64,000 nucleotides of DNA from Candidatus Heimdallarchaeum endolithica (GCA_021513715.1 CP084167.1:2912001-2976000); one strand, 5' to 3'. Positions 84-8,659 are shown, counted from the stretch's first letter. Notes: generated by a model from the letters alone, not told the origin. A program made the numbers and translations.

Positions 84-3014
84 TTAATTTTCCTTACGGA
101 ACAATTGTTGCTTAACTGGTTCTGCATTAATTGTTAGAGAAGATACAATTATACCTAGTGTTAGAATGAATAAGGCAGCAAAAGCTCCTCCGGTTCTATA
201 AGAATCTGCTCTTCCTATTATTGAGAGGAAATCATTCTCGATATGTTTGGCAAGGTTTTCTGTAGAATAGAGCATATCTTCAAGCCAGAATAAGTTTGCC
301 ATATCTGCAGTAAGTTTAGGATAAGTTTGATGCCATGTTCTATACTTATACTGAACATCTTCAGTGTTTTCTACTGCATCCTCATCTAAAAATGGATAAT
401 ATTCTACGTATTGACCTGCATAGGTATTATATTGTACTCTATCTCTTCGTTCGAGAATTGTACCAGTTGTTGGGTCAGTGAAAATTTGTTGGAAGTGGAA
501 TTCATCACGTATAGAACCAGGAAATGTGTGAGTAATATAAATATCATCATTCTTCCAATCTGTACCATAAATTTCGTTCCATCTTCCTACATGAACAAAA
601 CTTTCATTTAGATAATCTGCATACTCTTGCCAATATAAGTCATATTGATCTACTTGTAGATAAGGTTGTTGTGTGTCTGCATAGTAAATGTATGCATCTC
701 TTCCATACATGATTGTTTTATCTCTAGCAGAATCAAAGATAAAGGGACGGAAGAAGTATTCAACCCATCTTTGTGTAAATCCTCTTACTGTATTTGGAGG
801 TAAAGCATTTAATGCATAAGTCTCACTGAATGGATCAAATTCCACTGTTTTCATTGGCCAATTATTTAATTGGACGAAAGAAGCTTTATCCCAAACTTCA
901 ACAAATGTTCTTAATTCATCTCTATGTAGCACATCACTAAATGAACCTGAAGAGTAAGTTACATGTATTAAACCTTTAGAACCATCAGCTAAGTAAATGT
1001 TATTGCCAGAAGCGTAAACATCAAATGCTTCTCCATCGCTGTCGTAAGTTGCTAAACTGGATAAGGAATTGACGTTAGAAGCATCTACTACAATTAACCC
1101 ATTTTCTCCTGCAGTTAGGTATAATAAATCATTGTCTTCGTATATATTAAAGAAACCATCAGAAGTACCAAAGTCATATGTTTCAATTTGTGTTAAAGTG
1201 TTTCCACTAATTGAATAGACTACAAGTCCTAAAGTAGCATCAAGAACATATAATGTTGAACCATCCAACAGTAATTGTGTTGCTCCAGGAAGAGAGACGT
1301 TTACTAATGAATCTAATGTTGAAGCATCAAAAACTTCTATTCCTCGACCTTGTTCAACAGCATAAACTTTTGTTCCATCAGTATTAATTGCAATAACAGG
1401 CGAATCAGTTTCTTTAAGGGTATTCAAGGAAATATCTCCACCATTTGTTGTTAGTTTAGCTAATCCATATTGTCCCATAGCAACGAATAATGAGGATTTT
1501 GTAGGATTATATTCAAGATCTAAAGCGTTTACATTTCCTCCGTTAGTCCAAACATTAATTTGTTCTATCTCTGAAAGATCAGCTAAATTTAATGAAACTA
1601 ATCCTTTTTCACCAGCTGCTACATATCCAAAATCGCCATATAAACTAGTTTCAAAAGCAATATCCTTGAAAGAGTAACCTTGTAATCTGTATCCTCCAAT
1701 TCCTAAAAATAAGGGGCTGGAAGTATTTACTATTCTGAAACCTCTGTTTCCTTCGATCACATAAGCGAAATCTCCATTCATCTCAACCTTGTAACTTTGT
1801 GATTTTTCAAAGGTGGGGATATTGCCAATTGCAATTATTTCATCTACTCTTGTAATATTTTCTCTGCCTGTTTTTACAGCGTATAATAAGTCTGTAGAAG
1901 GATCAAAGGTTTCGAATGATTGATTAACCAAGAAAGGATATTTTCTTCCTCCAAGGAGAGGATCTTCAATCCCTGTAACCCACTCTGTTGCTGTTCTTTC
2001 GCAAATATAAGATATTTTTCTGTCGTATAACCAAGTTAATGCAGGAGTACCTGTAAGATATCTAATGTATGAAGCGAAAGATTGAGCTTGTTTTAGTTCT
2101 TCTGGTGTATCAATATCATAAATTTCTGCTAACTTTTGTGTAACGTTAACAGTGAGAATTGAGGAGTCATAGCTTAAACCTTGAACTAAATCAAGGAAGT
2201 ATTTCATAGACCCAGCTTCTCCAGTGAATAGAGAATAGTCATGACCATCTGCAGTTAATGCATTAAAGAGAATTTTGTAGGCTGTCTCACTATCAAAATT
2301 AAGATCTGTGTGATCAGGACGTGAATTAATCCACATGTGAGGGCTATACTTAATGCTGTAAATTAGGTCATTATCTTGTGCATAATCTTTATTTAGTACA
2401 ATTTTAGCAATTTCGCTGTTATTGTATCCTAATTCTTCTAATTCACTTCGAATCATAAAACTTGCAACATAAGCTTGTAAACCATACTCTGAACCATTAC
2501 CGAAATTCTTTACATAATATGGCCAGAGGTAGTTATAATTAACAATTTTCTCATTACCTGTTAATGTTGAAAGCGTTTTGTTTAAAGTGTATTGCTTCCG
2601 TTCAGTGTAAACAACATAATCATTTTCTTCACTATAATCAACTATAAATTTCTTCATTTCTAAGTCAAATACTAGTTTTCCTGGAATTCCTATGTAAGTA
2701 ACTGGCGTATTTTTGTACAGGTATGCATTTCTGTCACTTATGTTGTAAAATTCTATATAGGTATGAGCGTAATAATTACTATCATCAGAGTATTTACCAA
2801 CATACATCCAATCAGAGTAATTGTCGCTTCCTCCTTCGTAAGGATCAAGGTCGTCTTCTGTAATCATACCATAGTTACTTAGTTTCTCTTCTATTTGATT
2901 ATTGATTCTGATAGTTTGAATTGGTAACATTACGCCAACTGCGATAGCTGATCCAGAAGTTAAAATTAAAATAAATATTCCTAACATTATACGGAATTTT
3001 TTCTGCATAGTCAT
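84..3014 (-). CDS. CD36/scavenger receptor class B-like two-TM membrane protein with inserted LVIVD-repeat beta-propeller
   Basis: N- and C-terminal TM helices. CD36-like motifs: YIEFYNISD (cf. yFFNvTN), ERTATEWVTGIEDPLL (cf. RTv.ElL.GY.DPll), FTDPTTGTILERRDRVQYN (cf. vEP.TG..l....RlQ.N), LFWLE. Central repeats such as AYVIEGNRGFRIVN, LYLTAGENGLIVVD, IYLADGSKGLIHV. Confidence 0.7.
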   Translation of the reverse strand: MTMQKKFRIMLGIFILILTSGSAIAVGVMLPIQTIRINNQIEEKLSNYGMITEDDLDPYEGGSDNYSDWMYVGKYSDDSNYYAHTYIEFYNISDRNAYLYKNTPVTYIGIPGKLVFDLEMKKFIVDYSEENDYVVYTERKQYTLNKTLSTLTGNEKIVNYNYLWPYYVKNFGNGSEYGLQAYVASFMIRSELEELGYNNSEIAKIVLNKDYAQDNDLIYSIKYSPHMWINSRPDHTDLNFDSETAYKILFNALTADGHDYSLFTGEAGSMKYFLDLVQGLSYDSSILTVNVTQKLAEIYDIDTPEELKQAQSFASYIRYLTGTPALTWLYDRKISYICERTATEWVTGIEDPLLGGRKYPFLVNQSFETFDPSTDLLYAVKTGRENITRVDEIIAIGNIPTFEKSQSYKVEMNGDFAYVIEGNRGFRIVNTSSPLFLGIGGYRLQGYSFKDIAFETSLYGDFGYVAAGEKGLVSLNLADLSEIEQINVWTNGGNVNALDLEYNPTKSSLFVAMGQYGLAKLTTNGGDISLNTLKETDSPVIAINTDGTKVYAVEQGRGIEVFDASTLDSLVNVSLPGATQLLLDGSTLYVLDATLGLVVYSISGNTLTQIETYDFGTSDGFFNIYEDNDLLYLTAGENGLIVVDASNVNSLSSLATYDSDGEAFDVYASGNNIYLADGSKGLIHVTYSSGSFSDVLHRDELRTFVEVWDKASFVQLNNWPMKTVEFDPFSETYALNALPPNTVRGFTQRWVEYFFRPFIFDSARDKTIMYGRDAYIYYADTQQPYLQVDQYDLYWQEYADYLNESFVHVGRWNEIYGTDWKNDDIYITHTFPGSIRDEFHFQQIFTDPTTGTILERRDRVQYNTYAGQYVEYYPFLDEDAVENTEDVQYKYRTWHQTYPKLTADMANLFWLEDMLYSTENLAKHIENDFLSIIGRADSYRTGGAFAALFILTLGIIVSSLTINAEPVKQQLFRKEN

Positions 3015-3252
3015 TTTCCTCGCAACAATATCTGTTTATGCTTCCGTCTCTTATGTCTATTTAAATGTAATGACATATTCACTAGACATATTGGACTAGA
3101 GACATTATCAGTGCAACGGAGAAATAAACAATTATATATTTTGTGTATGTGTTTTTTTTTAAGGAATCATATATTTAAAAGAATTTACAATATAATATGC
3201 GAAAAAATTTAAATTTTTAAGAAAGAGAAAAGAAAGAGAAATTAAGCAAATA

Positions 3253-4518
3253 TTATTCTTCTTTTACTTCGTCTTCATTTTCTATTGTAACATTCTCTTC
3301 TATTAGATAATGTTCCTTCTCAAACAGAGTGTCATATGACGATAAAAAGGAGGTACTAACAAGTTCTCCATTAGAATCATACTCTTTTATAATTGCTTTG
3401 TTTAATATTTTGAATGAATCAAGAATTTCTTGGGGAATAGTAATGAAAGAAAATATTCCTCTAATGACTGTTCCCCTTCTTCTATTGCTATTTATAGCAA
3501 AAAAAACATCTTTATTTGAGTATTTTTGTCTAAAAATCTTGTAGTTTGATACAGATAAACCATCGTTAGTTGTTTGGATACAGATAAAACCTCTTAAAGG
3601 TGGTTTATCAATTGGAATGTTTGTTGCTAAATTCTCAACTTTTAATAGATTTGAAAAATCATTAATTTGTTCGTAGATGTCGTAGGAGACTAGAGAACAA
3701 AGACCTTTTGCATCTTGAAAAACATGTTGAAAATCTGATAAGTCGTAGGTATAAAAGTCATTCTTTGAGATAGAAGATATCATAATATCAACTATTACAT
3801 TCATTACTCTATCTCTAAGTTTTGTTTTCAATTCAAGATAACCACTAGACGGATTATTTTCAACTAATTTATTATGGTCTAATAAGATGAAAGGAATTAA
3901 GACATTTTCTAAATTTATCAAATAAGAAATAAAACCTAATAAAGAAATTTTCTCGCTTAAATTTTGCCCTTCTATTGGTTTTTCAAGGACAACTATTGGA
4001 GTTTTCCCTTTTTCTTTAATAATAGGTAGGAGTTCCATTAACATTCCTAATAGAAAACTATCATTTCCAGTGAAAATAAAAACAATTGAAGCATCTTCTA
4101 CAGTATTTACGATCTTCTGTGAAATACTAGATTGATTTTCATCAAACCACTTTTTACCCAAAAGAAAAGTAGAATTTATAATATCTCTGTTAGGTAAACG
4201 GATAAAATGATTCTTGTTTTCATATTTATTCAATGTTTCTTCATTAGCAAATAATAAGGAATTGCTTTTTTTTATTCTCTTAACAAGAAAAGAATAGAAT
4301 TCACAACCTTCTCCCAAAAACAAAAATGCATAATTTTTTAGTTTCTCTTCCCCTTCAAAAAATAGAGTATCAGATAGTTCAGAACCAAAAAAAGGATTTT
4401 CATCATTTTTGTTATCTACAATAATTCTTTGAAATTCAAATTTGTACAATGGGTTGAACTTTTGTTTTCTTGTCCCTAAACTTGATTTTTTTCTTTTGAA
4501 TATTTTTTTCAAACTCAT
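3253..4518 (-). CDS. Highly divergent tubulin/FtsZ-fold protein lacking the GGGTG motif
   Basis: FtsZ/CetZ-like motif order: FLFLGEG, ASIVFIFTGNDS (position of GGGTG), IVVLEKPIEGQ, FILLDHNKL, YDLSDF (T7-like loop). Basic N-terminus. Confidence 0.5.
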   Translation of the reverse strand: MSLKKIFKRKKSSLGTRKQKFNPLYKFEFQRIIVDNKNDENPFFGSELSDTLFFEGEEKLKNYAFLFLGEGCEFYSFLVKRIKKSNSLLFANEETLNKYENKNHFIRLPNRDIINSTFLLGKKWFDENQSSISQKIVNTVEDASIVFIFTGNDSFLLGMLMELLPIIKEKGKTPIVVLEKPIEGQNLSEKISLLGFISYLINLENVLIPFILLDHNKLVENNPSSGYLELKTKLRDRVMNVIVDIMISSISKNDFYTYDLSDFQHVFQDAKGLCSLVSYDIYEQINDFSNLLKVENLATNIPIDKPPLRGFICIQTTNDGLSVSNYKIFRQKYSNKDVFFAINSNRRRGTVIRGIFSFITIPQEILDSFKILNKAIIKEYDSNGELVSTSFLSSYDTLFEKEHYLIEENVTIENEDEVKEE

Positions 4519-6198: not shown

Positions 6199-7509
6199 AT
6201 GGAAGAAAGTTCAAAAGTTCCTGTTAGTGGGATAAAGGCAAGTTTAGTATATCCTGAATCTAAAATAAAACCAGTTTTTAATTTTGAAAATATGATAGTT
6301 GAACACTATAAACGATTTCCACGAACTGCAGCATTGATTGAAAATCCAAAATATGCAAAAGCCCTAATGAACCCTCTGAAATCTTTCTATCTTGTCCCTA
6401 TTGCTATTTTCAAGGTCAAATTTAATACTATTCTCTCAATGAAATTTTGGAATTACATGTCTTTGTGGTTATACATCCTTATTGCTTCTATTCCAAATTC
6501 TATCTCTATGTATTTAACATTCAAAAGCAATAAAATTTTAGGTGATATTACTTTTTCAGTTATCATACCTATATTAGTTTCCTCTCTAGTTGCCCTTTGG
6601 TACCTTAAATTTACACATGATGGTTTCTTTGGACTAATTATAGAGAAGAAAGTTGAGTGGTTGGAAAAACCTGTAAAAGAATACTATGATAAATATTATG
6701 ATAAAAAATTTAGTTTAAACGTTGTTTTAGTCACTTTGAGCGTCTTGACCTCATTAGGTGTTGGAATTCCTGTATTAATTTATGCTTCTAGCCAAGGTTT
6801 ACAATCTGCAATTATATTTGGAATTATTGGAATGATTTGCAATCTGCTAGTCTTTTATGTTTTCTATTTGTCTTTACAATATACTATATTAAACACTAAA
6901 ATTTATTCAAAGGTATTAAACACTATAAAAAATAGAATAAATCTCTATCTCAACGAGTATGGAACTTTGCTGAACAGTGAAAATTATGAGATCATTTGGG
7001 CTTTAGGAGACACTCCTGGAAGATCAATACGACAACTTGAGAATATACCTATAGCTGGAGTAATCTCTGCATTAATAGTAACAATTGCCATGTTAATAGG
7101 GACTATTAACCAAGCAGTTCTTGGACTAGTAAAAGGAGTTATGCCAACAGTGAATATAATTAATTCACAAATGAGTCTCAATGCAATAATTGCAACAATC
7201 TCTCTAGTTATTGCAATTGTGATGGTGTTAATCGTTATTCTTCCATTGTACATCTTTAGTAGTAAAATGAAGAAATTTAAAGTTAAAGCGCTGATAGAAC
7301 TGGACAATTACATTTTTGCGAATGTGATGGAATTTGAACAACGTTATTCTGAGCTTGCAAAACAAGAAACAGTAACTATATTTGCTCTCAGAGAGTATAT
7401 CTCTGGTATGAGAACTATTCCAATTTCTGCGGCGAAGATTATTAAAAGTTTAACAGCTGTTGCAGTATGGTTCGTAAATGTAAGAAAAATAATAAAAGCA
7501 TTTGGTTGA
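6199..7509 (+). CDS. Multi-pass membrane protein of unknown function
   Basis: About 6 hydrophobic helices; ends 10 bp before the tubulin-like gene. Confidence 0.7.
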   Translation: MEESSKVPVSGIKASLVYPESKIKPVFNFENMIVEHYKRFPRTAALIENPKYAKALMNPLKSFYLVPIAIFKVKFNTILSMKFWNYMSLWLYILIASIPNSISMYLTFKSNKILGDITFSVIIPILVSSLVALWYLKFTHDGFFGLIIEKKVEWLEKPVKEYYDKYYDKKFSLNVVLVTLSVLTSLGVGIPVLIYASSQGLQSAIIFGIIGMICNLLVFYVFYLSLQYTILNTKIYSKVLNTIKNRINLYLNEYGTLLNSENYEIIWALGDTPGRSIRQLENIPIAGVISALIVTIAMLIGTINQAVLGLVKGVMPTVNIINSQMSLNAIIATISLVIAIVMVLIVILPLYIFSSKMKKFKVKALIELDNYIFANVMEFEQRYSELAKQETVTIFALREYISGMRTIPISAAKIIKSLTAVAVWFVNVRKIIKAFG

Positions 7510-7519
7510 GTGAGGAAAA

Positions 7520-8659
7520 ATGTCGTTCTTAAAGAAACTTAGAAAAAAATCAATAGATATTGCAGTAATCGCTGTTGGTGATGCAGCCTGTACAATAGGA
7601 GCTAAATTTATTCAAAATTTAAAAGAAAATAAGATTAACGTGAAGTCTTTAGCAATAAATACAAAAAACAATTTTGAGTCCAAAATTTCTGACCCTTATA
7701 GTGACAAGTTTTGGTTTGCTGAACAATATTCTTCTACAAATCGTGATTTAGAATTGGCAAAAAAACTTTTTGAAGAAAGAAAAGAAGCTCTAACTGATAA
7801 ATTAAAAAATGTTGTTTTTTATCGCATAGATGACAAAAAACGAGAAGAAAAACTTGCTTTACATCTTATAATAGCTAGTGGAGGAGGAACTGGTTCAGCA
7901 GGTTCAATGATAGTAAGTAAAATAATTAAAGATATAACAGGTGAATCTCCGACAATAATCTTCATTGTTCCTGAAAAACATGAACCTTCAGTTGTTCAAT
8001 ATAATACAGCTACAGCTTTGTTCTATCTGGGATTTGATAGTCTAGGACCTAATTGTCCTACTATCCTATTTGATAATGAGAAACTAATCTCAGTTGATAA
8101 AACATTAAATATTAAGGATGCACTAGAATACTGTAATAACTATTTGGCTAATACACTCTCTACTACTATTTTAGCAGCTCTACAAGAATCTTCTCATGAA
8201 GAATTTAATGCGGGTTTAAATGATTTTTTCAAATCTTTTAGCTCTGAAGCAAAAGGAATAGGGGTCATTATTTCTGTAGATAAAACTTTTGAATCTTTAG
8301 AAAAAGCTCAAAATATTAGGTTTTCTGATATATTCTTTAAAGAATTAGAACTAACATCCAGTTTGACTGCGGATATCACAAAGGCAAGACTGGGTTTTCT
8401 ATCCATTATTGCTCCTCATTCCTATCAAACAACGTTTGAAACAAAAAAAATTGTAAAAAGATTTGAAAAAGGATCAATTAAGGTTTCATTAACATCATTA
8501 GAAGAGCCTATTCTTTTAATACGTGGAGTAATAACAGGGTTGCACCCTGATTTTATTGAGAGATTTTGGGATATTTTTGAACGTGCTAGGGATTCCAGAA
8601 AAGAGGTATTAATTCAAGAAGAGCAAATAAGAAACATGAAATTAGTTTTTTCCAACTAA
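7520..8659 (+). CDS. Divergent tubulin/FtsZ/CetZ-family GTPase
   Basis: IAVIAVGDAA (T1), LAINT, ASGGGTGSAG (tubulin signature), VPEKHE, YNTATAL, LFDNEKL. Confidence 0.8.
   Translation: MSFLKKLRKKSIDIAVIAVGDAACTIGAKFIQNLKENKINVKSLAINTKNNFESKISDPYSDKFWFAEQYSSTNRDLELAKKLFEERKEALTDKLKNVVFYRIDDKKREEKLALHLIIASGGGTGSAGSMIVSKIIKDITGESPTIIFIVPEKHEPSVVQYNTATALFYLGFDSLGPNCPTILFDNEKLISVDKTLNIKDALEYCNNYLANTLSTTILAALQESSHEEFNAGLNDFFKSFSSEAKGIGVIISVDKTFESLEKAQNIRFSDIFFKELELTSSLTADITKARLGFLSIIAPHSYQTTFETKKIVKRFEKGSIKVSLTSLEEPILLIRGVITGLHPDFIERFWDIFERARDSRKEVLIQEEQIRNMKLVFSN

Follow-up and report, generated by a model that had tools for sequence, protein, structure and literature searches.

A probable archaeal member of the CD36 family with a nested LVIVD beta-propeller, conserved in Heimdallarchaeaceae

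Does a receptor family that is treated as eukaryote-only occur in archaeal relatives of eukaryotes, and if so in what form? The question is raised by one gene on the minus strand (positions 84-3014) of a 64,000-nucleotide stretch of the genome of Candidatus Heimdallarchaeum endolithica (GCA_021513715.1, CP084167.1:2912001-2976000), hereafter the window, the product of which had been proposed to be an archaeal CD36/SR-B/LIMP-2-like receptor with an inserted LVIVD beta-propeller. Class B scavenger receptors (SR-Bs) are defined operationally by a CD36 ectodomain held between two transmembrane (TM) helices and possessing a ligand-sensing apex and a tunnel; they are regarded as an innovation of eukaryotes that goes back to the last eukaryotic common ancestor, and have been connected with phagosomes, lysosomes and the uptake of lipids (PMC10715195). 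The same 2023 survey of SR-Bs across Eukarya makes no mention of archaea (PMC10715195), and our literature search, which did not extend to supplementary tables, found no paper describing CD36 proteins in archaea. The best explanation of the results as a whole, held here with good confidence, is that the gene encodes a Heimdallarchaeaceae-specific, fast-evolved Asgard membrane protein of the CD36/SR-B type, acting by the mechanism proposed below.

The gene consists of a single stop-free open reading frame (ORF) of 976 amino acids (aa). In its product (P0001), the residues K5, K6 and R8 come before an N-terminal hydrophobic helix (~aa 9-32), and a second such helix near the C-terminus (~aa 942-963) is followed by a 13-aa tail containing K/R. 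As basic residues flank both helices on the side of the chain terminus, both short tails are predicted to be cytoplasmic and the ~900 residues between the helices extracellular, an arrangement that corresponds to the CD36-family topology of a large ectodomain with one TM helix at each end and short tails. Four CD36-like motifs follow one another in the ectodomain, namely EFYNISD (aa 88-94), ERTATEWVTGIEDPLL (aa 339-354), DPTTGTILERRDRVQYN (aa 847-863) and LFWLED (aa 908-913), and the block at aa 404-702, which has a beta-propeller fold, exceeded the Pfam cut-off in its match to LVIVD (PF08309). The two terminal TM helices, the four motifs in their order and the interruption of the ectodomain by ~300 aa of LVIVD repeats had all been named in the original prediction and were recovered by our analysis, and its assignment of the protein to an archaeon also held, the organism belonging to Heimdallarchaeaceae and an orthologue with 90% identity being present in Ca. 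Heimdallarchaeum aukensis.

Searches with the Pfam CD36 profile (PF01130, gathering score 26.5 bits) gave matches at E ≤ 0.1 in 10 of 19 orthologues, the best of which (P0019) exceeded the cut-off with 28.1 bits (E 9.6e-7) over three stretches. The matching segments are collinear with the profile and flank the propeller on both sides: aa 115-165 correspond to profile positions 81-133, aa 283-402 to positions 122-237 and, as seen in the orthologues, the DPxTG..RVQYN region to positions 361-395.

When 400 Asgard genomes were searched in six frames with PF01130, 28 of them gave matches far above the cut-off, with a maximum of 238 bits (E 4e-71). The 28 genomes come from three sister families in the window organism's order, another family in its class and, in a second class, a large family; their NCBI organism labels are Heimdallarchaeota, Lokiarchaeota/Promethearchaeota and Hermodarchaeota, and every one of the proteins is named 'hypothetical protein' at NCBI. 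These proteins, designated here as canonical, comprise 600-1370 aa (917 aa in G041, 607 aa in G010 and 780-860 aa in Loki/Promethearchaeota), carry two terminal TM helices and contain, where the apex lies (Pfam positions ~145-150), a helical insert of ~240 to 870 aa. A profile built from 17 canonical proteins matched human LIMP-2 (4Q4F, 4F7B, 5UPH) with E ~4e-74 (3.8e-74 for 4Q4F) and CD36 (5LGD) with E 5.5e-68, and by these comparisons the canonical proteins are genuine members of the CD36 family.

The window family was linked to the canonical proteins by profile-profile alignment with hhalign. The whole family aligned over 210 columns (E 1.6e-5, probability 79%), with aa 705-961 of P0001 corresponding to residues 692-913 of the G041 protein, C-terminal TM helix included. 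The C half alone aligned over 164 columns (E 2e-4, probability 47%) and the N half over 131 columns (E 1e-3, probability 21%), the latter with aa ~57-195 set on canonical residues 46-171 in the expected register, while the control, in which the two unrelated halves of the family were aligned with each other, yielded 16 columns at E 0.27 and a probability of 0.2%. When 31 family members and 14 canonical proteins were aligned blindly with MAFFT, residues N91, G112, N159, N161, P165, E176 and W345 in the N-terminal portion and W708, Y794, G833, H840, G851 and W910 in the C-terminal portion were invariant. Judged by the Pfam E-values and by hhalign relative to its control, the likeness of the motifs is beyond chance. 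The proposal that the non-propeller ectodomain is of the CD36 family thus found support, both in the weak but collinear Pfam segments and in the homology detected by hhalign to undoubted Asgard CD36 proteins. Like the topology, the domain order and the propeller, this homology is demonstrated at the level of sequence comparison, and we regard it as very probable. The parts of the gene are as follows.

84-3014, minus strand: whole gene, encoding a bitopic-hairpin membrane protein whose CD36-like ectodomain carries an inserted propeller and is flanked by a TM helix on each side; stop codon at 84-86.
2919-3014, minus strand: short basic cytoplasmic tail and N-terminal TM helix (signal anchor), aa 1-32; from the sequence and an AlphaFold 2 (AF2) helix at aa 2-49.
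2526-2846, minus strand: N-terminal beta part of the CD36-like domain, aa 57-163 (YSDW, FYNISD, DYVVYTERKQY, NYNYLWPYY); Pfam positions 81-133, canonical Asgard residues 46-171, AF2 strands at aa 81-160 with predicted local distance difference test (pLDDT) scores of 75-92.
2022-2525, minus strand: region consisting entirely of helices, located where CD36 has its apex bundle and enlarged to ~170 aa, aa 164-331; AF2 helices at aa 164-331, pLDDT ~90.
1806-2021, minus strand: RTATEWVTGIEDPLL ... KTGRENITRVDEIIAIGNIP segment, aa 332-403; Pfam CD36 positions 122-237, W345 invariant in both families.
909-1805, minus strand: seven-bladed LVIVD beta-propeller, aa 404-702; Pfam, AF2 and fold searches, with the insertion point taken from alignments.
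261-908, minus strand: C-terminal half of the CD36-like domain, aa 703-918 (VW, FRPF, PG..H, DPTTG..RDRVQYN, LFWLED); hhalign E 1.6e-5 over 210 columns, Pfam positions 361-395 in orthologues, AF2 poor at aa 703-802 and moderate at aa 803-918.
87-260, minus strand: juxtamembrane helix, C-terminal TM helix (~942-963) and short basic tail, aa 919-976; from the sequence, an AF2 helix at aa 919-961 and alignment to the canonical C-terminal TM helix.
3015-3252, minus strand: upstream intergenic spacer, AT-rich, 238 bp; read directly from the sequence.

With the eukaryotic CD36 family (PF01130: CD36, SR-BI, LIMP-2/SCARB2, insect SNMP and Dictyostelium LmpA-C; structures 4F7B, 4Q4F and 5LGD) the window protein shares the two terminal TM helices, the short tails and the one large ectodomain, as well as the motif order FxNxT/S, RTxxEhhWGxxDP, TGxxxI, (D/E)PxTG..R.QxN and hhW.E and the presence of helices at the position of the ligand-binding apex. 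It lies, however, at the detection limit of similarity to that family (21 bits to Pfam), its apex region measures ~170 aa as compared with a three-helix bundle, and it differs further in its 300-aa propeller outside the apex region, in the lack of ectodomain disulfides and in its archaeal host. The canonical Asgard proteins, from the same phylum, have the same topology and motif register and a helical apex enlarged at the same site, their insert of 240-870 aa being located where the window protein has its aa 164-331 region; with Pfam CD36 they reach 180-240 bits, and they lack a propeller, whereas the window family is far more diverged and has another gene neighbourhood.

The alignments place the propeller in a hairpin which in the canonical Asgard protein reads VEWKGQSVIT before and GVWKED after the insertion point, and this point falls after the apex region in the sequence. 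In eukaryotic SR-Bs all major length variation occurs at the apex (PMC10715195). As judged from these alignments, the propeller has genuinely been inserted into the CD36-domain hairpin. The module resembles the LVIVD (PF08309) surface proteins of archaea and bacteria in matching above the Pfam cut-off and in having seven blades, but here the propeller is nested in the hairpin of another domain and does not form a free-standing or tandem domain. Its nearest propeller matches (P0021-P0023) bear other surface-protein domains.

The distribution of the two forms bears on how they are related. Using the family profile, the propeller form was detected as one copy each in 30 of the 31 genomes of the window's family (f1), and in none of the 52 other genomes of the class. 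By six-frame search with PF01130 the canonical form was found in none of the 31 f1 genomes, yet it is present in sister families. As the two forms are distributed in a complementary manner, the propeller form looks like the Heimdallarchaeaceae orthologue, and the simplest reading of this distribution, taken by itself, is that the canonical gene and this one are orthologues, the Heimdallarchaeaceae copy having diverged strongly after it gained the propeller. The named relatives are Heimdallarchaeota metagenome-assembled genomes. For one family member the contig, 3.4 kb in length (L019, JBHLQZ010000231.1), bears the label Candidatus Thorarchaeota, which is probably due to a binning or labelling error because all other members are from Heimdallarchaeota. 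Shorter homologues lacking the propeller did not turn up in a word-index search, the C-half profile matched family members alone among longer proteins, and the ESM Atlas gave no usable lead with aa 45-404.

A number of results weigh against assignment to the CD36 family. P0001 itself reached 21.1 bits with PF01130 (E 1.3e-4), which is under the cut-off. Searches of the PDB sequences by phmmer and hmmsearch with the protein and with the family profiles A1, A2 and A3 found no CD36 or LIMP-2, a search of 1.84 billion proteins with a profile hidden Markov model (HMM) of the N half returned the family itself alone (7 clusters), and the canonical Asgard CD36 profile gave no match in the window's own genome. 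HMM-to-sequence searches thus fail in both directions, so that the homology is based on sub-threshold Pfam and profile-profile scores. With an alignment of 19 family sequences AF2 folded the propeller well and left the CD36-like parts at pLDDT <50. With the joint alignment, it gave pLDDT 85-94 for aa 70-370 and ~90 for the propeller (mean 74), in the order strands, helices, strands, although aa 703-802 stayed below 50; this confident model depended on the added canonical CD36 sequences, and the answer was therefore partly imported. Foldseek against the PDB and VIA-align (wide) with the joint-alignment model listed propellers alone, and as these lists were saturated by propellers, the absence of LIMP-2 from them is uninformative. 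The whole protein contains one cysteine (C338), and the ectodomain therefore lacks the disulfides of the animal members, which are a feature of those members and not of the Pfam family. Finally, none of the nearby genes points to lipid metabolism, the conserved neighbours being pyruvate kinase and tubulin-like genes. The PDB searches also listed Kelch and SH2 matches, which were dismissed as chance (E > 0.1).

Should the CD36-type reading be correct, the protein would operate as follows. The two TM helices would hold the large extracellular CD36-like domain, with its enlarged helical apex distal to the membrane. If it works in the manner of CD36, SR-BI, LIMP-2 and insect SNMP1, its apex would capture a hydrophobic ligand (for example a lipid, isoprenoid, quinone or lipid-bearing particle), which would then move through the tunnel of the barrel to the outer leaflet of the membrane, and the propeller would serve as an additional surface to which a macromolecular partner (for instance a glycan, the S-layer or a partner cell) could dock. 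In insects, the CD36-family protein SNMP1 acts together with receptors of the odorant or gustatory type. The barrel with its tunnel, the type of ligand and the transport step would thus follow the pattern of the eukaryotic proteins. The most likely role is that of a surface receptor catching hydrophobic ligands, with the function in lipid uptake or at the cell surface suggested by homology only; lipid transfer proper we rate as possible, somewhat short of an even chance.

A true CD36 homologue may also have ceased to move lipids and have become an adhesin or envelope-organising receptor whose propeller and apex bind the S-layer, glycans or syntrophic partners. Such a purely adhesive or organising role would agree with LVIVD repeats being typical of archaeal and bacterial surface proteins (Pfam PF08309 description) and with the other surface domains of P0021-P0023, with the at least 10 N-x-S/T sequons of the protein, which fit a surface glycoprotein, and with the extreme divergence of the CD36-like parts, which suggests a relaxed or altered constraint. 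However, the core motifs DPxTG..R.QxN, FW.E and RT..EW are invariant or nearly so across 30 genomes, which argues that the CD36 core itself is under selection and is more than a mere stalk, and we consider this alternative unlikely. As to origin, the Asgard CD36 genes, that of the window included, could stem from transfer from a eukaryote to an archaeon instead of going back to an archaeal forebear of the eukaryotic proteins. In Asgard archaea the canonical form has a scattered occurrence, in 34 of 400 genomes and in none from families f5 and f7, and it is strongly similar to animal LIMP-2, as such a transfer would lead one to expect; it nevertheless occurs in two classes and at least seven families, and all copies carry archaeal-specific apex inserts and are situated on archaeal contigs, which makes the transfer improbable. 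That the gene encodes a Heimdallarchaeaceae-specific two-TM surface protein unrelated to CD36, with a likeness due to convergence or chance, is very improbable. In its favour, significant HMM-to-sequence matches to solved CD36/LIMP-2 or canonical Asgard proteins are lacking, hhalign probabilities reach only 21 to 79% and the family-only AF2 model has no confident fold. Against it stand three Pfam and two hhalign segments that follow one another collinearly as expected, an orthologue exceeding the cut-off, an identical topology, residues kept invariant in the blind MAFFT alignment and a distribution complementary to that of the canonical form.

The surroundings of the gene were also analysed. 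The region has a GC content of ~32%, and GAGG is found immediately ahead of the start codons. The first ATG is at 3014; the orthologues and the ESM Atlas record begin at codon 3 (MQKK..., window 3008-3014), and the true start may be M3. The gene probably has its own promoter within the 238-bp spacer. Directly upstream, on the same strand, lies an ORF of 421 aa without Pfam match (3253-4518, minus strand), which is adjacent in 22 of 27 family loci, and the gene order pyruvate kinase, 421-aa gene, CD36-like gene is kept in 18-22 of the 27. A 436-aa polytopic membrane protein (6199-7509, plus strand) is encoded in tight coupling to a gene of the tubulin/FtsZ family (7520-8659, plus strand), and both are kept in 17 of 27 loci; the ESM Atlas gave no usable lead with the 436-aa protein. 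The canonical loci in other Asgard genomes are without the pyruvate kinase and tubulin-like neighbourhood. In two genomes of the Heimdall order, the canonical CD36 gene has immediately upstream of it a small ORF of 185-197 aa without Pfam match (L055:6767-7360 and L056:6636-7193), which may represent a conserved partner.

A receptor family regarded as confined to eukaryotes thus has remodelled members in archaea closely related to them: genuine CD36-domain proteins are present in several Asgard lineages, and the family Heimdallarchaeaceae has retained only the heavily remodelled form with a nested propeller. It is this propeller-bearing form, with its family link and its distribution, that is new, and it reveals an insertion site in the CD36 fold that is undescribed in the survey of eukaryotes (PMC10715195). 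Research on eukaryogenesis gains from it a near-universal, single-copy membrane protein that can be tested for lipid handling or cell-cell contact. An origin of the CD36/SR-B scaffold in archaea, with passage to eukaryotes by way of a Heimdall-related ancestor, we hold to be distinctly unlikely; if true, the scaffold would already have been a modular surface receptor before eukaryogenesis, able to gain a second recognition domain, and would be a candidate proto-receptor that captured lipids, particles or partner cells, as SR-Bs do in eukaryotic phagosomes and lysosomes.
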